Source: Macrostomum lignano (taxonomy: Eukaryota). From it: 43,812 nucleotides of DNA. Where the stretch lies: contig NIVC01000878.1 in NCBI GenBank assembly GCA_002269645.1, positions 1-43,812 of the forward strand, given 5' to 3'. Position 1 is the stretch's first letter. Every line of letters begins with the position of its first letter. Under the pieces are notes generated by a model, which made no database searches, was not told the origin of the DNA, and was given only the letters and a program-made list of their open reading frames with translations. Position numbers and translations under genes: made by a program. Of the stretch, positions 6,137 to 29,241 are shown piece after piece.

Positions 6137-6529
6137 CGAGATGATTGAAACAGAAACTTTCTGACAACTGCAATATTTAGCTGAATTAGGCAAATCACTG
6201 CAGGTATCATCGCGTTTCTGCTAGCTCTATGAGTACTAATAGAATTGCATGCAGTTCATCACGATTCACTGGCATGATAAATGCGAATCTTCAGGCCAAC
6301 TGGTATGCGGAATTCTGCTTTATTCTTAGGTTCAACCATTTTCTGCTGAAATTTTCTAATCATTTTTTATGGTGTGCGATTCTTATTGCTGATTTCGAAT
6401 GGTTATATGACCTTAATTGTTCACCTGATTTACAACTCCTAACCTTTATCTTCATTGAGACGAGAAGAGATTTTAAGAGTGAAAACATAAGATATGGATG
6501 AACCGCCTCACTGACTGACAGACCGAAAG

Positions 6530-9500: not shown

Positions 9501-10295
9501 GGGACAGACAGACACTGGGACAGACAGACACTGGGACAGGCAGGGACAGGCAGACACTGGGACAGGCAGGGACAGGCAAGGCCAGACAGAGACTGGGACA
9601 GGCAGACACTGGGACTGGCAGACACTGGGACAGGCAGACACTGGGACAGGCAGACACTGGGACAGGCAGACACTGGGACAGACAGACACTGGGACAGACA
9701 GACACTGGGACAGGCAGGGACAGGCAAGGCCAGACAGAGACTGGGACAGGCAGACACTGGGACAGACAGACACTGGGACAGACAGACACTGGGACAGGCA
9801 GGGACAGGCAGACACTGGGACAGACAGACCCTGGGACAGGCAGAGACAGACAGGGCCAGGCAGAGACTGAGACAGGCAGACACTGGGACTGGCAGGCACT
9901 GGGACTGGCAGACACTGGGACTGGCAGACACTGGGACAGACAGACACTGGGACAGACAGACACTGGGACAGGCAGGGACAGGCAGACACTGGGACAGACA
10001 GACCCTGGGACAGGCAGAGACAGACAGGGCCGGGCAGAGACAGACAGGGCCGGGCAGAGACTGGGACAGGCAGACACTGGGACTGGCAGGCACTGGGACT
10101 GGCAGACACTGGGACTGGCAGACACTGCGACAGGCAGACACTGGGACAGGCAGACACTGGGACAGGCAGACACTGGGACAGGCAGACACTGGGACAGGAG
10201 GACACTAAGACAAGTGGACACTGGGACAGGCAGACACTGGGACAGGAGGACACTAAGACAAGTGGACACTGGGACAGACTCTGGGACAGGCAGAC
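6530..10295. repeat. 3.8-kb 16-bp satellite with higher-order variants
   Basis: Monomer CAGACACTGGGACAGG with recurring variant cassettes; it explains all the long SVCLSQC and DTGTGRHWD ORFs. Confidence 0.97.
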
Positions 10296-10669
10296 ACACA
10301 CTCTGACACACACTCTGACACACAGCCAGCTTTGCAAAGACAAGCGAGTGCCTGTTGTCTGTCACCATTGATTGCCTTATGAATCGCAGTGTTCGAGCTC
10401 GAATGTGCAATTCCAATCATCCATATTAACCATAGCGCAGCGAATTCTGAATTGCTGATTTAATTTTGCTTAATAATCTCTTATTCTACACGCTGTTTAC
10501 AAATCGATGTCCTGCATGCTTCCACTCAAGCCTGAGCATCCAGTCAGCTTAAAGTATACACAATAAAATATACACAATGCCTATCAGCTGTTGCAGGCGA
10601 ATATCAATATGTGAATTTTGTAGCTCTTTAGTCAATGAATGATGAAAACTTGTGAATGCATTCGCTTCG

Positions 10670-10960: not shown

Positions 10961-11322
10961 TGGCGTTGGAGCCTGACACGCCACGGTGGCTGCAGCAGCT
11001 CCTGCACTGCACTGCTGGTGGGCAGCAACACTCGGTCCAGAAGATGCAGAGCTGGAAGCCGGTAAAATGTCCTCGATTGATGTCGGTAAATAATCACAGA
11101 AAACACCTGCGCAACCGATAATAGATCTCGACTTGAGCTCATGCAGTTGTTGCTGCTGCAGGCTTGATGTGGCAGTGACAGAAAGCAATCGAGGCTCCCA
11201 ATGATCGCACAGCTCACTGAGTCTGAATACTCACAGAGAGTTAATACGGATTTCAATCAGACTCATGCCGCATCGACAGAGCTCTGTTTACCGATAGGCA
11301 AGCGGCTGCCTGCTGATCGAGA

Positions 11323-11336
11323 GTCTCCATGGCAAC
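11323..11336 (+). promoter_or_regulatory. RFX X-box-like motif upstream of WSC-PAN gene A
   Basis: GTCTCCATGGCAAC fits the palindromic X-box consensus and is conserved in paralog B (34682-34695). Confidence 0.5.
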
Positions 11337-11428
11337 GCATCAATAAGGCTGCTGTTATTTAGCCTCTCTCTCGCACAGAGATTCGGCAATCTTCTGCTTA
11401 ATGCCGCACTGACAAACCCAGCCTGGCC

Positions 11429-14400
11429 ATGCCTCTCTGCAGGATTCTCTGTACTGCTCCGATCCTGAGCTGCCTGATCTGCGCCGCTCTCTGCCGGGAG
11501 TTCCAGATCTCGGACCTCGGCTGCTTTGTTGACCACACAAATGGCGTGCAGAGAGACGTCGGTGGCATGAAGAACATTGGCCTCACACGGATCGGCAGCT
11601 CCGAGGTATCTCAGATATACGATTCTATCAACTGCGGCCAGATGACTCGCGAGCTGTGCAGCAGCGCCTGCGCTCTGGGCGGCTTCCAGTTCGCGGCTCT
11701 GCAATCGACATACTGGTGCTTCTGCGGCAACTCCTACGGGTCGCAGGGCGCTGCTCCCGACTCGGACTGCTTTCTTGCCTGCAGTGGAAACTCGGGCCAG
11801 AACTGCGGAGGTGATTGGCGAAACCGGGTGCTCCGGCTGAGCTACACCAACGGTGAGTTGCTGCTGCTGGTGGCCTCTTGTTCAGCATCTGTTAGTAGTA
11901 TGGGTTAGCAGAACCCTGCCGAACAGTGCGGAGATAGGAGACTCCGGAGACAGAAAGGCGATGGGCGGAGGTGAGGTGGTGCAAGGAGTTGGGGTGGGTG
12001 GGCAGAGTGGCGGGTTGGAGGTGAGGCCGGTGCAAGGAGGGAGGTGGGTCGGCTGAAAGTTAGCAGAACGCTGCCGAACAGTGCGGAGATAGGAGGACAG
12101 AAAGGCGATGGGCGGAGGTGAGGTGGTGCAAGGAGTTGGGGTGGGTGGCAGAGTGGCGGGTTGGAGGTGAGGCCGGCGCAAGGAGGGAGGTGGGTCGGCT
12201 GAAAGTTAGCAGAACGCTGCCGAACAGTGTGGAGATAGGAGGGCTGAAAAGGCGATGGGCGGGGTGGAGGTGAGGCCGGCGCAAGGAGGGAGGTGGGTCG
12301 GCTGAAAGTTAGCAGAACGCTGCCGAACAGTGCGGAGATAGGAGGGCTGAAAAGGCGATGGGCGGGTGGAGGTGAGGCCGGCGCAAGGAGGGAGGTGGGT
12401 CGGCTGAAAGTTAGCAGAACGTTAGTTAGCAGAACGCTGCCGAGCAGTGTGGAGATAGAAGAGCGAGCGTACGGGGTAGGGGGGGCAAGTCAGAGTGTGG
12501 GGTTGGTTGAACTGGAGAAATTGGAGAGGCCCAGCGCGCCTAGCGTGGGGTTGGTCGGTCAGGTGGAAGGCAAGCACTAAGCAGCACCTCCCTGTGGAAT
12601 ATTATTGATACAAAATGTCTGAGAAAGTTTGGGGAATTTTAGGGGGTGGGGCTGGGTATAGATAACAGAACCCGTTAGTGCGGGGAGGGTGGGGGCTTCC
12701 AGAAGGGCGAAAACAAAAACAACTCAGTCTGCGAAAACTTTTGGTATTGCAGCACTGAATTAAATTTTTAGTTCCCACAAACATGTTTACAACCGCAATG
12801 TTTTACAAAGAGCATATAAATGTACAGCCAGACTAAGATCGCCAATCGTAAAGGGGGGTTTGAGCTGGGGGGGTGGGGGCGATATGAGGGTTTGGGTTTG
12901 GGTGTGTGGGGTTCGCAATGGGGGATATTGTCAACGTATACTATAAAACTAATAAAAATAAATACAATTAAATATTATGAAAAAATATTTTCCCTAATCA
13001 ACCCCCGTCTGATGCTTCTAAAAAAAGATAAATAGCACGGCCCCCGCTCCTCCCTGCGTCTTAGAAGCCTCGAAGAATATTTGAAGCCCATTTAATTTTT
13101 TCCTTAAATAGAAATTTAACCGCTAAAATGAAAGCAAAAAGCAGCAGCTCTACTCAATTTGACGTTTGCCTGACCTGCAACAAAGTTGTTTTGGGTCAGC
13201 TATCGGACCGACATGATAGCTGCAGTGGAAGAAGCTCATGGTTGGTCTGCTGGCAATGCGGGATGATAAAGAAGAATGTGGCCAAGGCGAGAGGACTGAA
13301 AACCCACTGTGGTCATCTACAGCTGCCCAGTGGTGACAATGGCATGCGCAACCTGAGGCGAATGGTGATGCAAAAAGCTCGGCAACTGGCGGCAGATAGG
13401 GAGGCAACTCGGCAGGCTTTAAGCCAAGTTATCGAGGAGGTGAGAGAGGCCTGCAGCAACAGCGATGACGACTTTATTGTTCAGCCAAGTCGGCAGCAGG
13501 ATGTAGTTGAGCGGCCAACTGGCTCTCATCGTCGTCGTCCTGAGATCAAGGGCAAGACTCTCCGAATTGATGACCCGCATATCAGCGACATCTCGGAGGA
13601 GGAAGACGTGGACCTCGATAGTAAGGATGAGGAGGATTTCGGCAAAGAAGTCACCACCGGCACCTCCATCCAGCAGATCGTCTCCGCTCAGCTGCCCGCC
13701 GAGATGCAGCAGACCGGCTCCGCTCAGCTGCCCGCCGAGATGGAACTGCCTGGCTCCGCTCAGCTGCCCGCCGAGATGGAACTGCCTGGCTCCGCTCAGC
13801 TGCCCGCCGAGATGGAACTGCCTGGCTCCGCTCAGCTGCCCGCCGAGATGGAACTGCCTGGCTCCGCTCAGCTGCCCGCCGAGATGGAACTGCCTGGATC
13901 CGCTCAGCTGCCCGCCGAGATGGAACTGCCTGGCTCCGCTCAGCTGCCCGCCGAGATGCAGCAGACCGGCTCCGCTCAGCTGCCCGCCGAGATGGAACTG
14001 CCTGGATCCGCTCAGCTGCCCGCCGAGATGGAACTGCCTGGCTCCACCCAGCAGCAGCAGCAGCTCGTTGACCTTCTTGCTGGGTTAGAAGATGGTGAAC
14101 TATTAGAGGTGCAGCAGCAGCAGCAGCAGCAGCAGCCAAACAATGTAGCCGAGAATGTTGTGAGTAGCTGGCAAGGAGGACTGCAACTCATTTTGCCACC
14201 AATTTCTGGTGGTGGATATGCGATGTATTTTGAGGGAAATTCAATTAGATTTGTCCCTTTGTAATTGTTCAGCTGGCTTCCTGATTTCATCATTCCCCTA
14301 ATAACTTCCTCTGATTGCTTTTAACAGCTAATTGTATCATTTTATGCTTATGGTTCATCCAGCTATATAAAAGACAAAATCACTTTTGTTATATTGAATA

Positions 14401-17400
14401 AGAACTGTTGAATTAGAAAGCGAAATGAAAGACTGGAATCTTCTTTATCTTTGGATAAAAAAGTCCTCTTGTTGTTTTTTATTTTAAAAAACTTTAACTT
14501 ATGTTTAACTAGTAATCTTTCAGAATCGCTGTATAGCAACTTAAAAATTAAAAAGTGCATCAAATGCAAATTTGAAATATTCTACATATTCGAACACGAC
14601 AAAATCATTCTAAAATATTAAAAAAATTAATTTCAGCTTGAGCCCACTATCTCCTGTAACACTTCCCAAAGTGGGAATAGCTCGGTCGACTGGAGTGAAT
14701 CAGAGAATGAAAATTGGAGTGAGTCTGATGTTCAAACAGGCGACTGGAGTGAATCAAACGGCTCAGAGATTGACTGGTCTGAGACTGACTCCAATTCGAA
14801 TTTCTCAGATAGTGATTCTTCTGCATCAGAGTTTGAAGTCATCCAGTCAGCAAATCACTCCAGTGAATCCAATCAAGTTTCGGTATCTGGTGTAGCAATA
14901 ACTCCGGTCAACAGCAGAGTTGACAGCATCAACAGCTGCAGATCTGAACAGCCTGGTGAGTATTTGAAATTTTAACAAAAATAAATGGTGATATTAAAAC
15001 CAACTTTTTAGCACAAGCAAATATTAAGTTCAACAGCAATAGCTAAAAGTGAAATTTAACGAATTTTTAAACTCAACTAGCACACGTGCATAGTAGGTTT
15101 GAAATTATGAAAATAATTAAAAAATGATGTACATATCTTTTCGCAGATGCAGCGGATGTTCAAGTTATCAGAGCACACAATGGTGTTCTAGAAGTTTTGC
15201 GCTTCACTCCAAGACAAGAAGCACTCGAAGCACTCGCTTTTGTCAGAGCATGCAAAAATCTGGTGAGGCAAGCACTTTCTGATAGGCTGACAGACTCTAA
15301 CCTACTAGTTCGTGCGCAGTTGCGCCTCAACGTGCGGATGAAACGAATTAAAGGTGGAGAGGTAATTTCGGAAGAAGATAAATGGATTAGCAGCTGTCTA
15401 GAGGAACTGAATTCAATTGAAGACTTCGACGATTGGTGGGTTCGCCAAGTAGGAGCCTGTGAGCGAATAATTGATTGCCTAAACACTAATGGTAGTGGTT
15501 GGACCCTTGATGCTGCCAATGTCTTGGATGTCTGTGTTTCTCAAGGGGATCGAATTCGGTTTTACATTGGTCGAAGCAAAAAATTTGTCTTGCCAGAGGT
15601 GTTGAAGCGGAAGAAAGCCGTTATAAATGCCCCAAGTGATGGAGACAACTGCTTTATCTATGCCTGTCTTGCGGTTCTTCATCATGGTTCTGAGACTTTG
15701 CGAAAGTCGCCTCATTTAGTATCAACGTATGCACTTTGGCTGGGTGATATCAATATGGAAGGAATTTCGCTGCCGGTCACTTTAAGCGAATTGTCTGCCA
15801 TCGAGAATCAAAATCTAAACTTTTGCTTCACTGTGCTGACATGGGTGAGAGGTCACGTGGAAGTATTGAGGCAACCGAAAGTTAAAGTAGCGACTGGTAG
15901 GCGTGTGATTCCACTGCTGTATCTGCAGTGCGAAGAGGGAAAAAGCACCAATCACGCTGACAATGACGAAGAAGATGATGAAAGTATAACATTCGAAGGT
16001 CACTGGTGTAGCATTGTTAATTTGAATCGTCTTCTAAATAGCAAGGATGGTCTTCACCAACGGAAATGGTGCGAGCGGTGCCTGTCAGGCTTTCGTTCTC
16101 AGGAACGACTTGAGAAGCACAGACAGGATTGCTACCAAAGTGATGACTGTACTGTTCGAGAGGTGATGCCAAGTGCCGACAAGAATACTCTAGAATTTAC
16201 CAACTGGCAAAATACAATATCGCCTCCTTTTGTTGTCTACGCTGATTTCGAGGCTTTTAATTCCCCTTGCTCTAAGTATGAGGATAAAGAAGCTTCAGCA
16301 GGCGTGACTGAACTCGACAAATCAGCGTTCGAGAATTCTGGTGCCCCGTCCCGAGATGGTGGAACAGTGTACCTGACAGAGCACCTCCCTGCCGCTGCTG
16401 GATACATTCTTCTCCAACGAGAAGACACAATTGGTCCTCGATTGCGAGACAGAAACGCTAGTTTGCAAATTTTTAATGAGAGCGCGTCTGAAAGCTGCGT
16501 TGAAAAGTTTTTGCACTCGCTTGAAGAAGTTTCCAGAGAAGTCTATTCGTGGAACAAAACGCATAGCCATCAACCTAAAACTGTCACTGCTGAGCATTTA
16601 AAAGCCTTCGATGAGTCGACTACTTGCTTCCGCTGCGGATCGGTTTTCCCAGACCCATCTCAGAAGCACTGGGATCATGACCACTTGACCGGACAATTCA
16701 AGGGGGCTTCTTGTCCTGATTGTAACATGCGATCCCAACTTAAGCGACGCTTTTTGCCGATCCTTTTTCATAACCTAGCAGGCTATGATTGTCATTTGTT
16801 GTTTTCTACAGCTCTAAAGCGAATGACTCACTGGAAAATATCCGTGATTCCTCAGTCGATAGAGCGCTACTTGTCTCTAAGAGCCGAATTCGTTGTAGAC
16901 ATTGTTGAAATTCAGGGTCGCCAGAAGCCAGTTACATTTAGTCTGCAATTTTTAGACTCGCTTCAGTTTTTAAACTGTAGTCTTGATAACCTGATGCGAA
17001 ACATGCTAGCAAGTGAGTGTAACGTGACAATGCAAATGCGCAACGCGTTCCCAAATGTCTCTGAGGAAATTCTTCTTAGCAAGGGTATTTTCCCTTACGA
17101 CTATATTCAAAGCACTTCTGACTTGCAAACTACCGCGCTGCCAGATCAGAATAGTTTCTTCAACTCACTGACAAAGACGGAGTGTAGTGATGCTGACTAC
17201 AGTCGCGCTCAGCGAGCATGGTGCCAATTTAATTGCCAGAACCTTGGAGATTACATGAATCGCTACCTAGAACTAGACATTCGCCAATTGGCCGATGTCT
17301 TTGAGTCCTTCCGCAAGTTGAGTCTGCAAGACGATAGCTTGGATCCTCTCCATTACATAACTACACCAGGTCTATCGTTTGATTCTGCTCTAAAAAACAC

Positions 17401-20400
17401 CGGCGCAAAGTTAGAGCTGCTCACTGATGTGGATATGTATCGAATGTTTGAGCGAGGTATTCGTGGAGGCATAACTTTTACTAATGTGCATCAAGCTCAA
17501 GCATATGAGAAAGTAGATGATGATGAAAACTTCATTGCTCTTGATCAGCCTCCAAAAAGTGCTGCTTTAATTCCATTGGATGTCAACAATTTGTATGGTG
17601 TTGCGCTCTCAATGCCTTTGCCTACAAGTGGTTTCAAATGGGTTGAGAACCAGACAATTGAGGAGTGGACTGCTGAAACATTCTTATCCTTAACTGAAGA
17701 CTCACCCATCGCCTATCTAGTCGAGCTTGACTTACTTTATCCAGACGAACTTCATAGACAGACAGAAGACTTACCATTTGCACCTGAAAAAGGAAAAGTT
17801 GATTACAACGAATTTCCCGAATTCATGAAAGAACTCTGGAGCCAACTTCAGCTGAATGTAGACCGTCCGTATCATCCTTGCCAAAAGCTACTTCTAACAT
17901 GCTACGACAAAGAGCGCTACGTAGTACACTCGAACATACTCAAATTTTATCTTCAGCAAGGGATGAAGATCAAGAAGATTCATCGGGCGATTGCCTTCTC
18001 ACAAGAGCGTGTATTTGAGCCCTACATTAGAAAAAATAGTGAGTGCCGATCGGCCGCTACCAGTGATTTTGAGCGAAATTACTACAAGCTGAAAAATAAC
18101 TCTTTGTTCGGAAAGACAATGGAAAATGTCCGGAAAAGAAAAGATATTCGAATTTGCACAAGCGAAGAACAAGCCAGAATCTTCTGTTCCAAGCCTACGC
18201 TGAAAGACTTCCTAATTGTTAATGAAACAATATCAATATTCCAACTATCGAAGACCAATATCAAGCTTAACCGACCTGTTTATATCGGGCAGTGTGTCTT
18301 AGACAATTCTAAATTGGTCATGTATAACCTCTTTTACTGTGAGCTTAAGTCGCGATTCGAGCAGGTTCCTCATAGCAGATTGAAACTATGTGGAGGAGAC
18401 ACTGACTCGCTGTTTCTATGTTTAGAGAACCTAGATGTTCAAGGTTACGTGCTACCAGAAATGATTAAAGCCGGATTGCTAGACACAAGCAACTATCCTG
18501 ATGGTCACATTCTTAAGTCTAACAAACTGAAAGCAAGGCTTGGCTGTCTGAAGGACGAATCGTCTGGTGCAAAATTTAAGGAGTGGATTCTCCTTCGCCC
18601 AAAGCTTTATTCGATGCTTGCAGATGAAAGCTGCCCTCAGATAAACAAGAAGGTCGCTAAGGGTGTACAAAAATCTGTCGTCCGCAGTGTAATCACACAC
18701 CAGAGCTACCGAGAAGCATTCTATTCTCTCCAAGAGCTAACAGTTCAAGTTCGACGTATCGGCAGCAAGCGTCATCGTGTTTTTACAACTGAGCAGTCCA
18801 AGCGAGCATTGACAGTTTGGGAGGATAAGCGAGCATGGACAGACGCAAAGTCAAGTCTTCCATTTGGTCACTGTGCATTGCGAACCTCTAACTCCCAAGT
18901 ACGGACTCTTAAGCGGCCGACCTACGAAGTGCCTTTCATTGGCAGTCCCAAGCGAGCTAGACTAAATGATTGTTGAATTGATGTTCGTAATTTTAATAGC
19001 TGTTATGCTTTTTAATAAATTTTGCAATATTCTATCGATTGTATCAGTGAATTGATTGCATGTTGTAAAAAGATAGGTTAAACGTACAAATGAAGTTTCA
19101 TGTCTGCTTTTTTTAATAGAGAAACTTACGACCGTAGGTTCTCGTTCTCCATTCTTTTGTTACCCATCAGTTGAATTTGAAGTACTTATTTTTATTGACG
19201 ATTGTTTGTAGTTTTTCTTTAAATAAATTTGTTTGCTTGTGAAATAAAATTCTGTTTCTTTTTCAACTTCTTTTGCATGAGCTTAAATGTTTTTCAGTTT
19301 GACAATAATGTTTTCATATTGCTAGTTTTTCTGTTTGCTTAATTTTTGTTTTCATTGTATCAGTTTTTGCTCTTATCATTTTCATAACGTGAAATAAAAA
19401 ACCAAGCACAATATGCTCAATTCCAAGCAAAATTTACCGATGCACAGAATTTGACTTTTTAGTTTATTTTTACTGAGACTGGAAAACTAGTTTGCGCAAA
19501 CGCATACAGGCAGTTCGCAATTGTGCCATTGACCGAGCACCACTTAATACAAATGAGCCACTATGAAATAGAAGACATTTGCAACAACTGACATCAAAAA
19601 TTAACGCAGAAAAAGACTCAGGTTCATATTCAGCTTTTGGAATTTTCTTTGACAAGTCCAGCAAAGATAATGCAGAGCCTATTGAAAGTTGACCATGCGC
19701 AGTTATTGTCTTAACTCGAAAACAGATAACTTGAGGAGGCAGCAGTTGAGTCGAAACTCTGCGATGTAGCATAGCCACAAAGCGATGGGCAGCCCTTTTG
19801 GCGTCTGCGTGGGTCTTGGCACCACAGATGCTCAGTTGGCCAGTAGGGTAGAGTAGCAACGTTACTCTGGGAGTCCGCATCCTCTTGATAAGCACTCGGG
19901 GCCAGGCGGGCCGGTAGATCACATGAGCCATGCTGAGAGCCAGTTCCCGTAGAGGCAGCTGAGCGCCCTCGCCCCCATCCAGTTTCAAGTCTACTCCGCC
20001 GACTAGGTTTGTCACTTTTAGAGCTGAACACATTATGATCGGAAATTTCTTCACCAATGCTGCTGTGCCCGCTCTCGTGCCTGCTCTCGTGCCAAGGACA
20101 CTGGTCGCTTCTTAAGCTGATACAGAACTTGGGTCTGAGCCAACTGTAGTACATCAATGCATTCCGCACTGCACACCCGGTGTCTGACTCTTCAACTGAA
20201 GGTGTTCCCAAATCTTCTAGGTTGTGTACCTGTCTGCCAAGCAACTTAGTCAAAAACATCGACTTCTTCGCTCCATTCGTCCAGATAGGACCACTGGTAA
20301 TGTTCAGAGTGTCATCTGCTAGATCCATGTACGGACGGGTTCCATCGTTCCACTTAAGCTTGTGCAAATTCTTTGATAGCCTCTTGTAGTAGAACCGCAT

Positions 20401-23400
20401 CTCAGGTGAAACTCTCTCCCATGGATAAGGGGGAGCGTAGAAGCTTCCTGCTCTGACTTGAACAACAGCAAATTCTTTTATAATATATTCTTTGCTTTCT
20501 CTTTCGCAAGGAAATCCTTGGATGTCAATATAGTTCATATTGAGAAAGATCACTTTGATTTTTAAATATTGTCACTTTGTCTTCTTATATACTTTTCTCT
20601 GGCTCAACCTCAGCCAGGCTGTCTTGCTTCCTAGTCCCTTGACTATATCCTGCTGCTCTTTTTTCAATTCAGCCCCTGCCGAGTCACTCACTAGTGATAG
20701 TTGGTTTTTAACTGATTTCCCGATTGCCGAAACTGGAACATTCAGCTGCTTTCGCTGTAGTAACCAAAAAAATTCATTCCACCCAACTGGTTCACTCCCA
20801 CCTACTGAATCCCTCACTGCGTGTTGAACTAAGTCCAGTATGTTTGAGCAAGGAATCGATGTGCCTGAAATTTCCACCTCTCCATTTCCCAAAACTTGAA
20901 TCAATTCAGGCTTGTCTGACAGGCTTGCCCATAGACTGCGGGCCCTGGTCTTGAATTTCTGAGGCACTGATTTGCTGATCTTCTCCTCCCAGTTGTTCTG
21001 CGGCAGATCTGCTTTCATCGTCTTTGCTTTAGCTTTGCTCTTTGTAGCTTCTTCCTCTGCTTGCTTGCGCTTGGTCAAAACACTCTGCATTGCATTCTGA
21101 TACATGTTTCTTTTTACTTCTGCGGGATAATCCTCAGTATACAAGATATCATCACATTTTTGCTGGGCATGCTTTAAACTATATTCGCTTGCAGACTCAG
21201 TCGGCTTCAAATTCTGCATCAGCATGTCATACTCGGACTTGGAGATCAGAACCATTTCGGTGAATTTGTTCATCTTCTTTCTTTTTCTTGACGAGCTTTA
21301 ACAGAATAGGTAGAATTTTTATGAATGCAGCATTGCACAAGTCTTCTTTCCTTCTTTGAGTTGTAATTCTTCGAATTATGTGTCTCGACTTAACCAAAAC
21401 TGCCTTTTCAGTAAGCGAGAAAGACAAGTTGTTTTCCAATAGATTGTAGCAGGCCTCGGCAAGAAAATTTCTCACTTCTCTTGGGCCGCGCTTTATTAGT
21501 ACGCGCTTAAAGCTAACAGTATATTTTGATGACGCAAGAATTACAAAAATGTTTCTATGCAATTCAAGAGCTTCCATTTTTTGAGAAAAAAGCTTACAAA
21601 GCAACGGAGCTATTCTTAAGCATAGACAAGATGGGGTCGCTGGTTGGGTAAAATTCTAGCTCGCACTCGCAGCTCATCAGGAGTTGATGGATGAAAATCC
21701 AGAAACAGATAGGCTCCCCTTCCCTGTGCTGTTACATGCCTGAACACTGAAAGCAGAAAGCCGGGTTTTTCTGTAAAGCACTGCCTGCCCAGTGCTGCAA
21801 TCTGCAGCTGGTCTCTGGGGTTTTTCAAGATAGCTAAATACATTACATTCAAGCTCATTGTTCGCGACTCTTTTCCCTTGAAAAATATATTCTGAGTCAG
21901 CATCACCAAAAAGCACGGCAAGTGATGTGCGATTCCTGTGAAAAAATTTCGCATTGAAGCAGAATTCGAAGTTTCCTCTATTAAGTCATCGAAAACAACC
22001 AGGTCATTGGGCCTAAGTGCTGCCTCGATGTTGGTGGGAAATCCCTGGCGCAGCTGCACACCTAGGTTGCTCAATTCTGTATGGCCTGCCTGTGAGATCC
22101 CATAGTACCACAGAACTCTGCCAGGCTTCACATCAAACATGGCGTCTCTGTACTGGATCAGGTGTTTGACAAAGGTTGTTTTTCCTGCATTGGTGGGCCC
22201 GCAGACAATCATGCAGCTTCCCTGTCTGAGGCGGATATCGTAGCAAACTCGCTTTTCTCCCATGTCTAATGCATAAATATAGTTCTAGAACATCTTTTTC
22301 TTAAGTTGGCTTCAAACCTCTGTAAGATTCTATCATTCAAATGATTTTTTTCATTAGCATGCAAATGCTTCAAAATCCCCTCAAATGACCGATTGAACAG
22401 AAACTTTTGATAAGCAAAATAGATGCAAAACATTCCGCATTTATTAGAGTTAGCACATTGAAATCTGTTTATATTGCTTCGGAGCCAAAAGCCAGTTGTT
22501 TTAATCTCTCGAAACAAATTATAAACCACAGATAAAATTTCAGGTTCCCAGCCGAGGGAGTTGAACAGCTCAATGCAATTTCCTTGTCCAACATAGCACA
22601 CCACCCAATGACCAAATGAGCCATTGTGCTGTAGTAGAACAAAAACAAACTTATTTTCAAGGGAAATTGATCGATATTTTCTTTTTAGGCTCAAAGGCAA
22701 AACATTTTTATAGCGTAAATGTAAAGTAATGATGAGAAATTTTCGGCAAGACAAAAATTTTCTGGCGAGATTAAGTAGTTGAATTGCGTCCATGCCAATT
22801 AAGAGGAATAGTCCAGCAAAAGCTCCCGGTGCTTGGTGACCTCAATCAGCGAGTCATACAGGCACAGAGCGATCAGGGACACCGCTTCGTCCAGAGCCTG
22901 TCGGAAGCGAATCTCCAGCCGCAGGTTGCCCTCCTTCTGTCCGTACCACAGAGCCGCTCTCTCTGGTGTGAGATCGAATGCAAACACCGTGTTGTTGTTG
23001 GAGAAGAGCTGGTAGGGGATCCACGGGACCGAATTGCTTGCAGATTGACAGCTTTTCAGGTAGTGCAAGTATTCTCTTACAAAGGAATTGTTTTCAGGTG
23101 TGAAGGCGCCGTGGCACACGGTCTCTCCACCTTTCTTTAGAGCCAACCGGCTGAGGTTGAAGCTCTGGAACTGGAACGGACTCGCGTGATGATGACCGTT
23201 GAATGCTCGGTGGCTCACGAAGGCCAGCATGATGAACTTCGGCAATTTTCCATGAGTGAATCCTTCAATGTTTTTAGATTGAATGCCCTGGGGTAGGATG
23301 AAGTTCTGCATTTCAGTTCGCTCGATGGGATACAGTGCATTTTGGTTTGTCAGCCCCTGCTCGTGAGCCAGGCTGATGTGGGGCACCACTTTGACTCGGC

Positions 23401-26400
23401 GAAGATGAAGAATGCTGTGAGAGATTTCCATGCGATAAGCCGCGTTGTTTACATTCGGGGTTCTGATGGCAAAGGCCCCATCGCTGGGACCAGTTTGATG
23501 TGCAAGTGCAGATTGCTTAGCAGAAACACTGGGCACTGGAAAACATCGCTGAAGAGCGGCCCCGCATACTCCATCCATCGGGATTCCCTGTGGCTCTCCG
23601 TGTGCTCTTCAGCTGCAGAGTCCGGCTCCAGGAAGCCAGCAGGGTAAAGTTTTAGTTGCTGGGCATCAGATGAGCTCATTAGTGCTTTGAAGTACGCATG
23701 GTAGGGATAGAGCTGGTCTCCACCAGACACCACTCGCTGGTTAATGCTCACAATTACATCTGAGAAGGCTGTAGACAAAACAAAGTTTTCTGGGTGCACA
23801 TCACTGTCTCTGCGCTCGGTGATGATGCCATCTCCATCTCGAACATCCTCCCTCAGCAAACCCCCATCCAGTCTCACAAGGCGGCAGCGAATATAAAGAA
23901 AAGAATTAAGCAGATCTGTGTATTCATCGGCAGATTGGTGGCAGTCAAATTCAATGGGAGAATTTGCAGTAATGGAATTTACTGGGTGAATATCAACATA
24001 AGTAGCTTTTTCAATGCAGGTTTGTAGAACGGGCGTCTTTAATAAATCAAGTCTGGGATTGAATCCGTAAGCCATGTCTATGACAGAGTCGAGCACGCGT
24101 TTCACAGTTTTCTTGCTGACTTTTTGCTGTCGCTTTCCTCCGCCTGCTCTATTCTTCTTTGCTTTCGTCTTCCGATTCTTAAGCTTTTTCCTACTAGCCT
24201 TGCTCGGCTTTCTTCCATTGGACCTCTTATTGAGGCGATCGCCACCAGTTGCCTTTCGGGTGCGCTTCTTCTTCTTCAATCGTTTCGGACTTGCTTCAGC
24301 ATTTCTTTTGCGCCTGACATTGCTAAGCGTTGAGGATAATGATGTAGCCGCTGGAGGAGGCTGGTATGTCATGATCCCAGGGAAGCTCCCACAGCCATTG
24401 AGTGCAGGCTTTTCGTGTCCTGTCCTCACCCCCGAATATTGCTGTATTAGCTGCTGGTAGTTCATTGAATGCGTTTCTCCCGAATCTGAACTGTGAGCAG
24501 AACAGGGCTGTGAGTCTGTGCAATCAGTGGGCAACCATAGATGTCCCGCAGCTGAACTCGAATGCTGTGGAGAAGACTGATTCGTTGAATCGGGAAGAAT
24601 ATTGTTTTCTTAAATATTTTTGTTTGATAGTTGCCCCATTCAATGCCAGCTTTCATTCCAACTGTTCTCAACAAGGAGCCCCAGTTGCAATTAGTTGACT
24701 CAATGATACTGCAGTGCACATTGATTAAGCTGGTGCGCGGGCAGCCAATGCAATGCTCGGACACGCGGCTCCCTGGCTGGATTTTCACAGCCTGGTTTCC
24801 GAATCCCAGCCAATGCAGAATTTTGCTGGATGGGAGAAACAGCTCTGCTCTCGTAGTGTTGTTGTGCACCACAGTTCGTGAGTTGCGGATTTCGAACTTC
24901 ATACCAAATTCCCTGTTGCCACTACGCCCCATCAGGCCGGACTCATCAGCCTCCATCTCAGACTCCCTGTCACTCATCGCATCAAAGAACAGCGAATCAG
25001 AGTTGGCCAGCAGCTCATTCAGGCGCTCCACCAGCTCCTCCACTCTAGCAAAGCGTCCGGGTTGAAGAACCAGGGCCTCATGCTCTCTTCCATCTGAGAC
25101 AGTGAAGCAGTAAGGCTCGTCAACATTGAACCATGCAGCAGGCAGATGGATTTCAGCCAGACCTGCCTCATAGTCCACATTTCGATCCAAGTAAATAGGT
25201 GAAGACAGGTAAAAATTAAAGTCACTAGGAGTACCTTCAGCATGCTCACTGTTAATCAAAATAGTTCGCATTATAAAGATAAACTTCATGATGAGGGATG
25301 TGCCAAAGCTAAACCTTTCTTAAGTCTTTTTCATCCACCCAGCCAGTCGAATCGTAGCCGGCCCATTTCACCAGATAGCGAATTTTTCCCTTCCGCTTCT
25401 CCGTTTTCAGGATCTTCTCAATCACATACAGGCGCTGTGAGTCCGGGACAGCCTGCAGCTCGTGCTCATGGAAGAGTCCTCGAATCTCTTCCCCCCGCAT
25501 GTCTTTAATCTTGTACATGTAGGGATAATGTTTTGGGGCTCTGCTCACCACGGTGTACACTTCCTCACTCCAGCTCGCTTTGTATCCCTTTTTGAATAGC
25601 CGTGGAGCATTGGAAATTCTCACTGACTGGTTTTCAGCGAACTTAGGCTTCCTTAATTTTTCTAGAGTCTCGGCTGCTTTTCCATCGTACAGGTTCATCC
25701 ACACTTCAGATTCATTCTCTTTGCAGACACTAGTGGGTGCCATTTTGATGCTTCTGTGGTAGGTATTGTTGTAAGATTTTACCAGCTTAGGCAGCACATC
25801 AAGCCAGTGCAGTGTGCTCTTGTAGGTGAAGTAGCGCCACATTCTGCTTTTCAGAGTCCGATTCCATCGCTCAATGACAGCCGCCTTCTGCTCGCTGTTA
25901 GTTGGGAAAGCCAGAATCCCTCTGTCAATGCAGTATTGACGGAAAGTGGAGTTGATAAATTCCTTCCCCTGATCTGTGCGAACTGTGCGTGGCTGGCGCT
26001 TTGAACTTCTCAGTATGCTCTCGAATGCTGACTTCACTTCTGTAGCAGTTTTATTTTTCAGTGCCTTGGCCCAAGCACACTTTGACAGTACGTCAATACA
26101 TGTGAGAATATATTTGTAGCCTTTATTATACTTTGCGAATGGAATCATTTTTACCAAGTCAAGTTCCCACTGATCATCGATAGCCCGCACTATGATTGGG
26201 GCCCTTGGATATCGCCTTCTAGCTGGCTTGTGTAGGGTGTGCACTGGCTGCTCACTGAGCCACTGTTCTATGCACTTAGTGGATTTGCGATCTCCTCTTC
26301 TCCTAACTTCATTCAACAGTTTAGAAGCACTAGAAAAACTAGCCGGCTGTTGTGGGTCAAAGTAAATTTTTTCCATCCTCAAATGAAAAAGAACCAGATG

Positions 26401-29241
26401 TACACAGGTATGTTTTTCTTAAGAACAACGATTGGCGTTTTAAAAGACAGGTTTTATTCCAATATTAAACTCATACAGCGTACACTTATTATATTTTTTT
26501 AACTTAGGGACTGCGAACAGTTAGTGATCTTAAAAAGAAGATTGCAGGAAATAGTAACACTGAGTAGTGCAAATAAGTATAAATTGCATGCATTTAAGTA
26601 TAAACTTGGTTTGTTAACACCTGAATAAATAAGACTAAACGGTTACGACAATTGTCAAAACTTAACTTAGCTGAATAAAATTAGACAAAGGCAAACCAAA
26701 CTGAATTATCCTTTGAGTCTCATCAGTCTCATCCAACCTCCAGCTCAGTCTTCAAAACGCAGCTTAGACACCTTCATTGTCTCCTGCCTGCGCAGAGGAT
26801 ACGGCAGTTTCCGCTTTCGATTGTTCTCCACCTCAGCGGCATGAGCCCGGAATCGGTACCACACCGGATCCTGCTGTAGGTCCGTGTCCTCCGCCGGGAT
26901 GTTCCCAGTCGATGTGCCGGCTCTGGCCAAAGGTGTGGAAGTCACAGCCTCGATGTCGGTTGTCAGCTCCGATGGTGAGCCGACCTCCTCCTCGCCTTCA
27001 GCAGCCTCAGTCTTGACCGGCAGTATGAGGGTGGCGTCTTCGTCCTCATCTTCGGATGAGCTCAGCTCGTACTTCGCCCCCGCACCTTGGTAGGGCTCTG
27101 ATAGCTGCTGGTCTATCCAGTCCGAAGTCTGCCACAGCTTCTACCAGAGCTTCGGAGACAGTGGCACGGTGTTGCGCTTCATAAATTCATCACAGCAGTC
27201 CTCAGGCAGCCGCTTTAGCCAGATGAGGCCATCCTTGACTTGAACAAATTTGTCGAAGCCCAGCTTGATGACCTTGAGCTCGTTGTTCAGAGCCGACTTC
27301 ACCAGGGAGCGCTTTAACTCCTTTAGCTTCGTCCACTGCTGCACATTCAGGTTGAAGCCAGGAACACCAGGCTTGAGGCTTGCTGTGCTGCCATGTCGGT
27401 AAAACTTCCTGATCGCGATGTATTTCTGGCCTTCGAATTCTTGCACCTGCACTCTGTAACCTTCACTAATATCCATAGTTCACACAAAATCACTTCGAAA
27501 ACTTGTGAAATCGAATTCAAGAAAAAAATAGATTTACCGTTGAATTTAAAAAATCGGGGGCTTATATACCCTCAAAGCGGAGTGGGGTGGGTGTCAGAAT
27601 GAGCACCCACCCAATTTTTTGCTTATTCGGCATCAAGCAGCGGCTGCTCGTCAGCATCAGCCACACAAACCGTTGCAAAGTTTATTGCTCATTTATTAAC
27701 AATGCCAGTGCGCCTAGAGCTCACCTCTGTCCCTGCACAGTGAAAGTGCGGCAGAGTTGAACAGCTGTTTTAGAGCTCACCTCTCTGTCCCTGCACAGTG
27801 AAAGTGCGGCAGAGTTGAACAGCTGTTTTAGAGCTCACCTCTCTGTCCCTGCACAGTGAAAGTGCGGCAGAGTTGAACAACTGTTTTAGAGCTCACCTCT
27901 CTGTCCCTGCACAGTGAAAGTGCGGCAGAGTTGAACAACTGTTTTAGAGCTCACCTCTCTGTCCCTGCACAGTGAAAGTGCGGCAGAGTTGAACAACTGT
28001 TTTAGAGCTCACCTCTCTGTCAATTTGTTTACTCTGCTATTCCAAAACCTTCCGATTCTTTGCTTTGCTACCTGCCTCCCCCACCTGACCGACCAACCCC
28101 ACGCTAGGCGCGCTGGGCCTCTCCAATTTCTCCAGTTCAACCAACCCCACACTCTGACTTGCCCCCCCTACCCCGTACGCTCGCTCTTCTATCTCCACAC
28201 TGCTCGGCAGCGTTCTGCTAACTAACGTTCTGCTAACTTTCAGCCGACCCACCTCCCTCCTTGCGCCGGCCTCACCTCCACCCCGCCCATCGCCTTTTCA
28301 GCCCTCCTATCTCCGCACTGTTCGGCAGCGTTCTGCTAACTTTCAGCCGACCCACCTCCCTCCTTGCGCCGGCCTCACCTCCACCCCGCCCATCGCCTTT
28401 TCAGCCCTCCTATCTCCACACTGTTCGGCAGCGTTCTGCTAACTTTCAGCCGACCCACCTCCCTCCTTGCGCCGGCCTCACCTCCAACCCGCCACTCTGC
28501 CCACCCACCCCAACTCCTTGCACCACCTCACCTCCGCCCATCGCCTTTCTGTCCTCCTATCTCCGCACTGTTCGGCAGCGTTCTGCTAACTTTCAGCCGA
28601 CCCACCTCCCTCCTTGCACCGGCCTCACCTCCAACCCGCCACTCTGCCCACCCACCCCAACTCCTTGCACCACCTCACCTCCGCCCATCGCCTTTCTGTC
28701 CTCCTATCTCCGCACTGTTCGGCAGCGTTCTGCTAACTTTCAGCCGACCCACCTCCCTCCTTGCGCCGGCCTCACCTCCAACCCGCCACTCTGCCCACCC
28801 ACCCCAACTCCTTGCACCACCTCACCTCCGCCCATCGCCTTTCTGTCTCCGGAGTCTCCTATCTCCGCACTGTTCGGCAGGGTTCTGCTAACCCATACTA
28901 CTTCTGTTATTTACATGTTCAATTGGATTTTGTCTAGAGTCAAACTAAGTTTAGGCAGAATATCAAATTCCTTCAAATTAATCTTCCGAATCGAAGGTAA
29001 CAACTTCTTCGTCAGCGGCAACCGGACCTTCGTCGAACTCAACATCCCTGATGCGCCGAACTTTACGACTGTGAGCGCTTCAAGTCGGGTCCATTGTGCG
29101 TATCTGTGCTCCAGTAAAAGTTCCGGTTGCCAGGCGGTGATCTTCAGCCAGCAGCAGCGCCTGTGCCACCTGCTGGAGTTCGCTGCGGTCCCGGCCGCCT
29201 TCAGCAGCGCCAGCAGCGGCGACTTCTTTGTCCGTGGCTGA
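11429..29241 (+). CDS. Secreted WSC-domain + PAN/Apple-domain protein, copy A (two exons; intron contains the Maverick)
   Basis: Exon 1 is 11429-11852: signal-peptide-like N-terminus, WSC motif LGCFVD...MTRELCSSAC...FAALQ..YWCFCGN...C..ACSGN..QNCGG, donor G|GTGAGT. Exon 2 runs from about 28955 or 28997 to 29241: PAN-like CAYLCSSKSSGCQAVIFSQQQRLCHL. The exact acceptor is uncertain. Confidence 0.8.
11894..12566 (+). repeat. Left terminal inverted repeat (673 bp)
   Basis: Two ~150-bp and two ~103-bp units, each starting GTTAGCAGAAC(G/C)CTGCCGAACAGTG, then a unique inner segment ending GTCAGGTGG. Confidence 0.95.
13128..14264 (+). CDS. Maverick ORF1: Cys-rich N-terminus, acidic region, 10 x 12-aa repeat and poly-Q; possibly exon 1 of pPolB
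   Basis: 378-aa ATG ORF; CLTC...CWQC...HC pattern; 36-bp repeat at 13683-14042 (SAQLPAEMELPG); consensus donor GTGAGT at 14160 in phase 0. Confidence 0.75.
   Translation: MKAKSSSSTQFDVCLTCNKVVLGQLSDRHDSCSGRSSWLVCWQCGMIKKNVAKARGLKTHCGHLQLPSGDNGMRNLRRMVMQKARQLAADREATRQALSQVIEEVREACSNSDDDFIVQPSRQQDVVERPTGSHRRRPEIKGKTLRIDDPHISDISEEEDVDLDSKDEEDFGKEVTTGTSIQQIVSAQLPAEMQQTGSAQLPAEMELPGSAQLPAEMELPGSAQLPAEMELPGSAQLPAEMELPGSAQLPAEMELPGSAQLPAEMELPGSAQLPAEMQQTGSAQLPAEMELPGSAQLPAEMELPGSTQQQQQLVDLLAGLEDGELLEVQQQQQQQQPNNVAENVVSSWQGGLQLILPPISGGGYAMYFEGNSIRFVPL
14637..14955 (+). CDS. Predicted internal exon of the pPolB gene (Ser/acid-rich, WSES repeats)
   Basis: TTTCAG acceptor; stop-free frame LEPTISCNTSQ...DWSESENENWSESDVQTGDWSESNGSEIDWSET...RSEQP; donor G|GTGAGT at 14956; AT-rich intron to TTTCGCAG at 15146; joins in frame to the polymerase ORF. 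Confidence 0.7.
15147..18976 (+). CDS. Protein-primed family B DNA polymerase (pPolB), main exon
   Basis: Motifs YADFE (ExoI), C2H2-like CERC...KHRQDC, endonuclease-VII-like DHDHLTG...CPDCN, HNLAGYD (ExoII), KGIFPYDY, YLELD..QLADVFE (ExoIII), LDVNNLYG (motif A), KLKNNSLFGKT (motif B), GDTDSL (motif C), KLYS and KGV. Uninterrupted. Confidence 0.97.
19470..20033 (-). CDS. TATA-binding-protein (TBP)-fold protein encoded by the Maverick, 187 aa
   Basis: Two TBP repeats. Repeat 1: VTNLVGGVDL...LRELALSMAHVIYRP...IKRMRTPRVTLLLYPTGQLSICGAKTHADAKRAAHRF. Repeat 2: YEPESFSALIF...LLFHSGSFVLSGARS. These are colinear with canonical TBP NIV...LKTIAL...YNP...[25 protein letters not shown] and YEPELFPGLIY...IFVSGKVVLTGAK. 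Confidence 0.9.
   Translation of the reverse strand: MCSALKVTNLVGGVDLKLDGGEGAQLPLRELALSMAHVIYRPAWPRVLIKRMRTPRVTLLLYPTGQLSICGAKTHADAKRAAHRFVAMLHRRVSTQLLPPQVICFRVKTITAHGQLSIGSALSLLDLSKKIPKAEYEPESFSALIFDVSCCKCLLFHSGSFVLSGARSMAQLRTACMRLRKLVFQSQ
19711..20538 (-). CDS. Maverick-associated DEDD/DnaQ-like exonuclease-fold protein with a C-terminal run-on overlapping the TBP gene
   Basis: N-terminal ~135 aa YIDIQGF...IIKEFA...HKLKWNDG...NGAKK..FL...VHNLEDLG.P...CAVRN...W resembles a small protein recurrent in arthropod-type Mavericks. The remaining ~140 aa look like an out-of-frame shadow of TBP. Confidence 0.6.
   Translation of the reverse strand: MNYIDIQGFPCERESKEYIIKEFAVVQVRAGSFYAPPYPWERVSPEMRFYYKRLSKNLHKLKWNDGTRPYMDLADDTLNITSGPIWTNGAKKSMFLTKLLGRQVHNLEDLGTPSVEESDTGCAVRNALMYYSWLRPKFCISLRSDQCPWHESRHESGHSSIGEEISDHNVFSSKSDKPSRRSRLETGWGRGRSAASTGTGSQHGSCDLPARLAPSAYQEDADSQSNVATLPYWPTEHLWCQDPRRRQKGCPSLCGYATSQSFDSTAASSSYLFSS
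20572..21273 (-). CDS. Conserved Maverick hypothetical protein
   Basis: 233-aa ORF; MVLIS..EY start and the IPCSNILDLV...EPVGW..F..LL...NVPVSAIG pattern recall a recurrent Maverick gene found next to the ATPase module. Confidence 0.7.
   Translation of the reverse strand: MNKFTEMVLISKSEYDMLMQNLKPTESASEYSLKHAQQKCDDILYTEDYPAEVKRNMYQNAMQSVLTKRKQAEEEATKSKAKAKTMKADLPQNNWEEKISKSVPQKFKTRARSLWASLSDKPELIQVLGNGEVEISGTSIPCSNILDLVQHAVRDSVGGSEPVGWNEFFWLLQRKQLNVPVSAIGKSVKNQLSLVSDSAGAELKKEQQDIVKGLGSKTAWLRLSQRKVYKKTK
21227..21577 (-). CDS. Small basic Maverick protein (putative virion core protein)
   Basis: Basic ~116-aa ORF with EACYNLLENNL...L...RHIIRRI...FIKILP pattern, in the position usual for a small conserved gene downstream of the ATPase. 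Confidence 0.6.
   Translation of the reverse strand: MEALELHRNIFVILASSKYTVSFKRVLIKRGPREVRNFLAEACYNLLENNLSFSLTEKAVLVKSRHIIRRITTQRRKEDLCNAAFIKILPILLKLVKKKKEDEQIHRNGSDLQVRV
21616..22263 (-). CDS. A32/FtsK-like genome-packaging ATPase
   Basis: Walker A GPTNAGKT, Walker B VVFDDL, then HH...LTQNIF...R..SLN..YL...KNPRD..QI..LGRQ. Confidence 0.95.
   Translation of the reverse strand: MGEKRVCYDIRLRQGSCMIVCGPTNAGKTTFVKHLIQYRDAMFDVKPGRVLWYYGISQAGHTELSNLGVQLRQGFPTNIEAALRPNDLVVFDDLIEETSNSASMRNFFTGIAHHLPCFLVMLTQNIFFKGKESRTMSLNVMYLAILKNPRDQLQIAALGRQCFTEKPGFLLSVFRHVTAQGRGAYLFLDFHPSTPDELRVRARILPNQRPHLVYA
22266..22793 (-). CDS. Adenain-like cysteine maturation protease
   Basis: GHWVV (His), ELFNSLG, and FQC.NSNKCGMFC (oxyanion Gln and catalytic Cys). 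Confidence 0.88.
   Translation of the reverse strand: MDAIQLLNLARKFLSCRKFLIITLHLRYKNVLPLSLKRKYRSISLENKFVFVLLQHNGSFGHWVVCYVGQGNCIELFNSLGWEPEILSVVYNLFREIKTTGFWLRSNINRFQCANSNKCGMFCIYFAYQKFLFNRSFEGILKHLHANEKNHLNDRILQRFEANLRKRCSRTIFMH
22799..24075 (-). CDS. Major capsid protein (double jelly-roll), split by a 1-nt frameshift near 23487
   Basis: LDLLKTPVLQTCIE..TYVDIHP...SPIEF...YTDLLNSFLY start; restoring one C in GTCCCAGC joins it to SILHLRRVKV...YPIER...GKLPKFIMLAFV...FNG...PFQF...FAFDLTP...NLRLEIRF, giving 425 aa. Confidence 0.9.
24076..24465 (-). CDS. Lys/Arg-rich core-like protein reading in frame into the MCP
   Basis: ATG overlaps the mCP stop (ATGA); 130 codons dominated by K/R; LNGCG matches an adenain cleavage consensus; no stop before the MCP ATG. 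Confidence 0.75.
24462..25289 (-). CDS. Minor capsid protein (penton, single jelly-roll)
   Basis: NSEH...TPSDF...L..PIYL...YEAGLAEIHLPAAWFNV N-terminus and INVHCSII...LLRTV...FPI...I.VQLRD..G C-terminus, typical of Maverick pentons. Confidence 0.85.
   Translation of the reverse strand: MKFIFIMRTILINSEHAEGTPSDFNFYLSSPIYLDRNVDYEAGLAEIHLPAAWFNVDEPYCFTVSDGREHEALVLQPGRFARVEELVERLNELLANSDSLFFDAMSDRESEMEADESGLMGRSGNREFGMKFEIRNSRTVVHNNTTRAELFLPSSKILHWLGFGNQAVKIQPGSRVSEHCIGCPRTSLINVHCSIIESTNCNWGSLLRTVGMKAGIEWGNYQTKIFKKTIFFPIQRISLLHSIRVQLRDIYGCPLIAQTHSPVLLTVQIREKRIQ
25309..26376 (-). CDS. Retroviral-type (rve) DDE integrase with C-terminal chromodomain
   Basis: WELDLV (D), RTDQGKEF (D), AVIERWNRTLK (E); chromodomain YVIEKILK...RYLVKWAGY...WV. 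Intact. Confidence 0.96.
   Translation of the reverse strand: MEKIYFDPQQPASFSSASKLLNEVRRRGDRKSTKCIEQWLSEQPVHTLHKPARRRYPRAPIIVRAIDDQWELDLVKMIPFAKYNKGYKYILTCIDVLSKCAWAKALKNKTATEVKSAFESILRSSKRQPRTVRTDQGKEFINSTFRQYCIDRGILAFPTNSEQKAAVIERWNRTLKSRMWRYFTYKSTLHWLDVLPKLVKSYNNTYHRSIKMAPTSVCKENESEVWMNLYDGKAAETLEKLRKPKFAENQSVRISNAPRLFKKGYKASWSEEVYTVVSRAPKHYPYMYKIKDMRGEEIRGLFHEHELQAVPDSQRLYVIEKILKTEKRKGKIRYLVKWAGYDSTGWVDEKDLRKV
26745..27476 (-). CDS. PC4/Sub1-like ssDNA-binding coactivator with acidic tail, interrupted by an in-frame TAG at 27141-27143
   Basis: RVQVQEFEGQKYIAIRKFY...KPGVPGFNLNVQQWTKLKE parallels PC4 VSVRDFKGKVLIDIREYW...KPGRKGISLNPEQWSQLKE. The frame stays open after the TAG until the TGA at 26745. 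Confidence 0.82.
27561..27568 (-). promoter_or_regulatory. TATA box upstream of the PC4-like gene
   Basis: TATATAAG on the minus strand, ~85 nt upstream of ATG 27476, in GC-flanked context. Confidence 0.5.
27716..28021. repeat. 58-bp subterminal tandem array, 5.3 copies
   Basis: AGAGCTCACCTCTCTGTCCCTGCACAGTGAAAGTGCGGCAGAGTTGAACA(A/G)CTGTTTT at 27716, 27772, 27830, 27888, 27946 and a partial at 28004. Confidence 0.95.
28081..28902 (-). repeat. Right terminal inverted repeat (822 bp)
   Basis: Reverse complement of the left TIR with three long and two short units. Confidence 0.95.

Follow-up and report, generated by a model that had tools for sequence, protein, structure and literature searches.

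The polymerases of Maverick/Polinton elements are usually taken to be encoded without introns and are annotated from their first methionine. Intact vertebrate Mavericks have been reported to be intronless (PMC8097293), which is a described trait of the vertebrate elements and not a strict criterion of the family. For polintons, a layout has been described in which a terminal-protein (TP) domain is followed by a vOTU protease domain (10.1101/2024.03.18.585575). Here we analyse the gene for the protein-primed B polymerase (pPolB) of an element from the flatworm Macrostomum lignano. The window, the whole stretch of DNA analysed, comprises 43,812 nt (contig NIVC01000878.1, assembly GCA_002269645.1) and contains one Maverick/Polinton of ~17 kb (11894-28902).

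The element resembles Mavericks/Polintons and adintoviruses (Alpha-type, pfam03175) in its terminal inverted repeats, 6-bp target-site duplication, rve integrase, probable protease and ATPase and possible capsid gene, and it resembles the TP-vOTU-pPolB elements in carrying a TP and then a vOTU domain within pPolB (PMC8097293, PMC8502044, 10.1101/2024.03.18.585575). It is unlike the vertebrate Mavericks in that a very probable intron precedes the TP domain in every lineage examined, and in that some lineages lack an own start codon. We propose, with a probability of about one half, that the polymerase and the open reading frame upstream of it (ORF1) are two genes, and that trans-splicing supplies the start of the polymerase. 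Annotation from the first methionine would here cut the TP domain in half.

A start of this kind has a parallel among host genes. The spliced leader of M. lignano has been published; 30% of the genes are trans-spliced, genes within 1 kb are counted as operons, and the top trans-acceptor and donor motifs are [T/C]TNCAG and GT[G/A]AG, respectively (PMC8629364). In flatworms, the AUG of the leader starts some host proteins (PMC9851317, citing Cheng 2006; PMC12582326). The likeness to such leader-initiated genes and operons consists in an AUG-ending leader, an acceptor of the [T/C]TNCAG type, an upstream gene 372 nt away (<1 kb) and a frame in phase 0; leader initiation is known for host genes, whereas here it is proposed for a Polinton. 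In the literature searched, no report was found of leader trans-splicing for a gene of a Polinton or other integrated DNA virus.

In adenovirus E2B, likewise, a protein-primed replication gene takes its start from an upstream exon (PMC9499273; PMC2397415), a parallel that was drawn in a preliminary description of this window. It stands as regards the upstream start and is otherwise loose, since TP and polymerase are separate in adenovirus and the leader is tiny, whereas here the TP lies within the polymerase, as one polypeptide, and the first exon encodes ~106 acidic residues. A tiny shared upstream coding exon was not found, as no consensus donor (non-consensus sites aside) is present in the ORF1 5' untranslated region (UTR) or in the gap between the two genes.

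Gene layout and the very probable intron before the terminal-protein domain

A genome search with the polymerase N-terminus returned 708 candidates, of which 86 were scored; 40 loci were fetched to cover the identity groups and were assigned on visual inspection to lineages A, A2, B1, B2, D, E, F, G and H. With the window added, and with three left aside because their upstream DNA was too short or the motif was absent, 38 loci were compared. The nearest relatives of ORF1 itself (L101-L103; 95% over 14124-14230) are copies with rearrangements and common insertions, in which the polymerase is missing. The relevant features of the window are as follows.

13128..14264, + strand: ORF1, 378 aa, most likely a separate protein
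13440..13445, + strand: candidate phase-0 donor GAG/GTGAGA inside ORF1, also in L101 (read by eye)
14160..14165, + strand: candidate ORF1 donor GTGAGT, phase 0; TTGAGT in the nearest kin
14265..14636, + strand: AT-rich gap, 27% GC, read as intergenic or outron, with no GT[AG]AG donor inside
14364, + strand: TATA-like box TATATAAA in the gap, kept in L101-L103
14631..14636, + strand: acceptor TTTCAG, phase 0, fitting [T/C]TNCAG; a phase-0 acceptor is also found in L101-L103 and lineage A
14637..14955, + strand: proposed first coding exon of pPolB, 319 nt, with acidic, Ser-rich W-S-E repeats and no ATG
14956..15146, + strand: very probable spliceosomal intron, 191 nt, phase 1, 26% GC, at a position common to the family
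15147..18976, + strand: main pPolB exon with TP fold, vOTU, endonuclease VII-like insert and DNA_pol_B_2

ORF1 starts with an ATG at 13128, and the candidate donor GTT/GTGAGT at 14160 would close an exon of 1032 nt in phase 0. The acceptor AATTTCAG ends at 14636 and is followed by the middle exon, which is free of stops and of methionines. A second intron (intron 2) is delimited by the donor CTG/GTGAGT at 14956 and the acceptor TTTTCGCAG ending at 15146. The pPolB frame extends over 15128-18976, where the stop codon ends, and has its first methionine at 15338. The GC content of the successive parts is 0.57 (ORF1), 0.27 (gap), 0.46 (middle exon), 0.26 (intron 2) and, over the initial 300 nt of exon 3, 0.46. 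The preliminary description had joined the three parts into a single reading frame; its coordinates and frames, the sum of 1032+319+3830 = 5181 nt (1727 codons) and the 378-aa ORF1 were all correct when the sequence was read again. It had overlooked the in-frame donors at 13440 and at 14719, the latter a perfect GTGAGT in phase 1 inside the middle exon. Because of these further in-frame consensus donors, a perfect GTGAGT hexamer alone is weak evidence; to judge from the comparison of the loci, intron 2 and the acceptor at 14636 are more than chance, and the 14160 donor is only a candidate.

The sites of intron 2 are highly conserved. A phase-1 YAG acceptor is present 6-10 codons before a conserved Ala-His/Tyr motif at all 38 loci, with a spacing of exactly 10 codons in lineages D, E, F, G and H, and a phase-1 donor closes at least 25 open codons upstream at 37 of them. 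Many of the 38 loci are near-identical, so that the independent count is ~9 lineages, with 34-56% identity to the window. The intron measures 179-1143 nt and shows no conservation of sequence; within lineage D (L059 and others) the copy number of a short tandem repeat moves the length from 369 to 1143 nt, regardless of frame. The same acceptor is used in a UniRef gene model of lineage D. On this evidence the intron at 14956-15146, directly before the TP domain, is very probably real and spliceosomal. The preliminary description had proposed that pPolB is spliced, with the 191-nt intron and the 319-nt exon as its parts, and had pointed to sister elements as the place to look; the sites are indeed kept across the family. 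Lineage-D loci such as L059 also have an in-frame ATG just ahead of the intron 2 acceptor.

A conserved intron would mean that the host nucleus has long been transcribing and splicing these elements. Maverick-polinton-like elements of dinoflagellates carry introner insertions of the spliceosomal type (PMC11957031); those are mostly young insertions acquired after integration, whereas here a single intron position is common to lineages of 34-56% identity. No report of a conserved intron in a Polinton polymerase was found in the literature, in a search that left subscription papers and Repbase gene models mostly outside its reach.

The first 400 residues of exon 3 were modelled (pLDDT 73.8). Residues 11-135 of the model (15179..15553, + strand) form a terminal-protein-type domain with a little-finger/PAD fold (Z 8.2, rmsd 2.9, 98 aligned), and residues 147-294 (15587..16030, + strand) a vOTU protease domain (Z 7.2, rmsd 3.3, 107 aligned to OTUD1); both Z values are middling, and the assignment of the first fold as TP follows the published layout (10.1101/2024.03.18.585575). 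The structure model thus places a TP-type fold near the polymerase N-terminus, where the preliminary description had suggested seeking one, but wholly in exon 3 and not in ORF1 or the middle exon. The polymerase domain proper is recognised as DNA_pol_B_2 (PF03175, E 3.5e-18; + strand), and the best fold matches are adintovirus proteins. An endonuclease VII-like motif within the polymerase (16604-16732; PF02945, E 3e-5) recalls the HNH insert in pPolB2 of nematodes and oomycetes (PMC10748475).

The first methionine of the long frame, at 15338, is residue 64 of the model and falls within the third strand of the TP fold; the upstream exon is needed because this methionine lies in the middle of the fold. 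It is very improbable indeed that the polymerase is unspliced and starts at this position. The methionine is the first ATG of the long frame, and automatic calls on relatives (P0004) are placed alike, but half of the TP fold would be lost, sequence conservation starts ~55 codons further upstream, and the acceptor before it is kept at all 38 loci.

Where the polymerase starts

At 32 of 37 loci the open phase-1 frame has an ATG of its own. It is missing from this frame in the window, in three B1 copies and in one H copy whose frame is broken; in the B1 copy L049, an ATG precedes the likely acceptor. In lineages E, F, G, H and B2 an in-frame stop lies 3-21 codons ahead of the ATG. Fusion of ORF1 to the polymerase, as the preliminary description had envisaged, is therefore not borne out as a rule of the family, most of which uses a nearby ATG in the middle exon, the very finding that the description had named as speaking against the join.

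Donors are also scarce upstream. In lineages D, F and G, GT[AG]AG is absent from the final 850 nt of ORF1 and from the gap ahead of the exon, L124-L127 contain none in the last 400 nt of ORF1, and in eight representative ORF1s none is found at a common position; the ORF1 5' UTR is without a consensus donor in 8/8 representatives. The B1 polymerase exons are found behind two types of ORF1, one of them without any donor in its last 400 nt. In the pPolB tree, for which two outside proteins served as long-branch outgroups, H and D-G fall outside a weakly supported group (87/93) formed by the window, A, A2 and B, so that the lineages with their own ATG include deeper branches. An arrangement as separate genes, the polymerase having its own ATG, looks ancestral on these sequence grounds.

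ORF1, the first exon and the polymerase recombine as modules, lineages A and A2 sharing ORF1 and first exon and having different polymerases. In L105-L107, and in a joint of sequencing run X6 (13202/15323), DNA deletion derivatives link the start of ORF1 to the interior of the TP region. In lineage E (L061:4970-5047) a frame opened at the upstream acceptor is closed by a stop codon that shares bases with the polymerase ATG (TGATG).

A long open exon without ATG is found in two lineages, the window (112 codons) and L101, and the acceptor is in phase 0 in both. In L101 it is followed by 97 open codons up to the rearrangement, with no methionine seen in the exon-like part; the sequence directly before the acceptor is no longer alignable in L101-L103. 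In lineage A, too, the acceptor is in phase 0, and an ATG follows 19 codons into the exon. From the acceptor to the first Asp-Trp repeat the distance is 16 codons in lineage A, 17 in the window and 15 in L101. A pattern search for the repeats of the middle exon returned mostly unrelated tandem repeats.

In the proposed arrangement, ORF1 would give its own 378-aa protein, and the polymerase gene would consist of two coding exons, 14637-14955 and 15147-18976, separated by the cis-spliced phase-1 intron. The acceptor before the first exon appears to lack a non-coding cis donor partner, and the AUG-ending spliced leader of the host would be trans-spliced there. With an exon lacking ATG and an acceptor in phase 0, the leader AUG would become the start codon in the window lineage. 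The predicted product has, by arithmetic, ~1383 aa: the methionine, a 106-aa acidic leader, TP, vOTU and exonuclease/polymerase. Transcription of its pre-mRNA could start at the TATA-like box (14364) or, in the manner of host operons, read through from ORF1. The acceptor is in phase 0 with a frame devoid of ATG, and the gap holds no cis donor; ORF1 holds those at 14160 and 13440, and whether they compete would depend on the start or the cleavage point of the pre-mRNA.

None of the 12 GT sites that the gap contains before 14600 would make a good donor following an open ATG, and a mini-exon there was rejected. A donor overlapping the ORF1 stop (GTAATT, phase 2) was also rejected, its phase being incompatible with the phase-0 acceptor and several lineages lacking it. 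No sequencing run listed for this DNA is recorded as RNA. Contigs assembled from four of 24 listed runs, X1, X2, X4 (presumed RNA) and X6, were compared with 12600-27700, and among the joints listed none falls at 14159/14637 or 14955/15147; coverage of the exon was thin or nil and the depth of the presumed RNA tracked that of the high-depth run X6, so that this comparison is neutral as to splicing.

The leader can be traced in the genome: a 21-base piece of the M. lignano spliced leader has 121 matches, compared with none for the reversed control. In the tandem arrays of such matches, five of six selected loci read on as ATG/GTAAG and carry an Sm-like tract, in the manner of leader RNA genes; the six leader-matching loci inspected first proved not to be such genes. 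At L109, L110, L112, L113 and L149 leader-like sequence is followed by no GT donor and preceded by AGTAG/AGTAA-like letters; such loci may be retrocopies or a mobile element carrying the leader.

The acceptor motif points the same way. [T/C]TNCAG occurs within 80 nt (39-77 nt) before the own ATG in five of the six own-ATG lineages, in which a fusion could not ensue, for a background of 0.14 each (binomial 3e-4), a P value to be taken as a guide only, since the 80-nt span was fixed with the data in view and the lineages are not independent of one another; for B2, whose ORF1 stop could not be placed, 700 nt were used. None of nine intron-2 acceptors fits the motif. In the proposed scheme the leader would be added at the first-exon acceptor in nearly all lineages, and the own ATG would become dispensable where that acceptor is in phase 0. 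We suggest, tentatively and at rather less than even odds, that this Polinton family has wired its replication gene into host trans-splicing in an operon-like manner, with one clade dependent on the leader AUG. If so, a virus-like element relies on a leader RNA specific to its host lineage for its replication enzyme, and host range and cell type would be tied to trans-splicing. Replication would occur only where the AUG-ending leader is present, in this host reportedly including stem cells.

Several points weigh against this interpretation, beginning with the limits of the motif test. [T/C]TNCAG is also an ordinary cis acceptor, and lineage F has none near its ATG. In lineage B1 the acceptor is in phase 2, with a stop right after it in most copies and no ATG behind, so that B1 fits neither a leader nor a fusion to ORF1. 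The group of the window, A and B has weak support in the tree (87/93). L101-L103 are damaged and share insertions, and their lack of the 14160 donor amounts to one observation, possibly of decay. A phase-0 GTGAGT stands in the tail of ORF1 both in the window and in lineage A, while only two phase-0 GT[AG]AGT occur in 25,838 nt of pPolB exons; these rare in-frame donors speak for fusion precisely where an outside start is needed or could be used. In a UniRef gene model (P0002), an ORF1 of lineage D is connected straight to exon 3.

It is improbable, though it must be weighed, that the window copy is decayed or non-autonomous, its middle exon having once had its own start and the full polymerase being no longer translatable. 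The capsid gene of the element is in two frames, many sister polymerases are broken (all six fetched B copies are), and B1 is likewise without a usable start. The polymerase type is rare in the genome, and the sole near-identical second copy found lacks the 5' part: this copy (G000:C2183; L150, L151) corresponds to 16609-28737 of the window at 99-100% identity, with the left repeat adjoining 16609, and is a truncated derivative of the window element. Yet the 1282-codon frame, the 319-nt exon, both terminal repeats and the target duplication are all intact in the window, and the diverged L101-L103 show the same ATG-less phase-0 start, which is not expected from independent decay.

The polymerase might instead begin at a near-cognate codon in the middle exon, or on a small cis leader exon with a non-consensus donor. 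The TATA-like box is kept in the nearest kin, and the adenovirus pTP is annotated with a first exon of 9 nt (table in PMC2397415). Such a start is decidedly improbable, given a gap without GT[AG]AG, the poor quality of its 12 GT sites before 14600 and the score of 0/8 for donors in the ORF1 5' UTR.

ORF1 and its possible fusion to the polymerase

In the predicted ORF1 protein, an N-terminal folded domain (eight invariant Cys/His, one Trp) leads into a long helix, a middle part of variable 12-aa repeats, and a C-terminal motif of ~25 residues up to the stop. This motif is kept in 9/9 aligned lineages and in three outside homologs (P0012-P0014). It lies downstream of the 14160 donor, and its retention there argues that ORF1 is an independent protein. 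Comparison of ORF1 with Pfam gave no useful family (repeat matches only), and neither an Atlas match of 0.9 or above nor a clear fold match was found; the only named homologs in UniRef are those of M. lignano, and no related locus was present among the viral contigs searched.

A fusion confined to one clade is somewhat unlikely. Here the ATG of the middle exon would have been lost and a donor gained in the ORF1 tail, and a cis join 14159/14637 would give a 1726-aa protein beside the 378-aa ORF1; donor 13440 could be used in its place, or the join could be a minor route alongside trans-splicing. The phases of the 14160 donor and the 14636 acceptor match exactly, the donor has the form GT[G/A]AG that is the top donor motif of the host (PMC8629364), and lineage A likewise combines a phase-0 GTGAGT in the ORF1 tail with a phase-0 acceptor, such donors being scarce in pPolB exons. 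The donors of the window and lineage A, however, do not coincide, lying 35 and 20 codons ahead of the stop, respectively, and that of lineage A sits on Val-Ser codons of the conserved C-terminal motif. At the 14160 site TTGAGT is read in 3/3 of the nearest ORF1 copies (L101-L103, probably one lineage), which retain the phase-0 acceptor, and lineages D-H and B2 are closed by stops or without donors. Splicing at 14160 would remove the conserved C-terminal motif, and the GTGAGT at 14719 illustrates that in-frame hexamers also arise by chance.

Gene model P0002, which links ORF1 to the polymerase exon, omits the middle exon, starts without a methionine and looks like an automatic model. A search for longer proteins combining ORF1 and polymerase gave two matches, both automatic gene models, and a profile search of 1.84 billion representatives gave seven, none of polymerase length.

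The element and its surroundings

Outside the polymerase and ORF1, the following features were assigned in the element.

11888..11893 and 28903-28908: left and right copies of the 6-bp target-site duplication TCTGTT
11894..12566, + strand: left terminal inverted repeat, starting AGTAGT
19470..20033, - strand: TBP-like gene (PF00352, E 4e-26)
21616..22263, - strand: probable packaging ATPase (Pox_A32, E 0.02, weak and below the cut-off)
22266..22793, - strand: probable adenain-like C5 protease (PF00770, Peptidase_C5, E 0.003, below the cut-off)
22799..24100, - strand: probable double jelly-roll (DJR) major capsid gene, in two frames with a break near 23.5 kb; 5' limit approximate
25309..26376, - strand: rve integrase with chromodomain (PF00665, E 6e-13; PF00385, E 1.4e-5)
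27141..27476, - strand: PC4-like gene (PF02229, E 7e-10)
28081..28902, - strand: right terminal inverted repeat

The 3' part of the capsid gene has a feature score of 0.97 to DJR-like clusters, with recognition below the threshold of the tool, and this is a lead only; no solved structure was matched by the sequence of the capsid piece. The candidate at 24462-25289, which has no Pfam match, is presumed from gene order to encode a minor capsid protein. Two genes resemble transcription factors, the TBP-like and the PC4-like gene. In sequencing run X6 the read depth over the structural genes (21700-27700) is ~20-50x that of the polymerase region (14600-19600), which points to a structural module common to many copies with other types of polymerase. 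About five tandem copies of a ~60-nt unit are found at 27720-28030, just inside the right repeat.

The element is surrounded by repeats. A 4-kb array of 16/10-nt units occupies 6430-10400, and inverted repeats pair 11280-11902 with 34119-34738 and 28984-29560 with 33417-34017; array and flanking repeats probably represent an older repeat into which the element was inserted. Further away, at 40170-42665 on the - strand, the window contains a DUF1759 domain and a reverse transcriptase, which we take to be a piece of a Pao/BEL-type retrotransposon.

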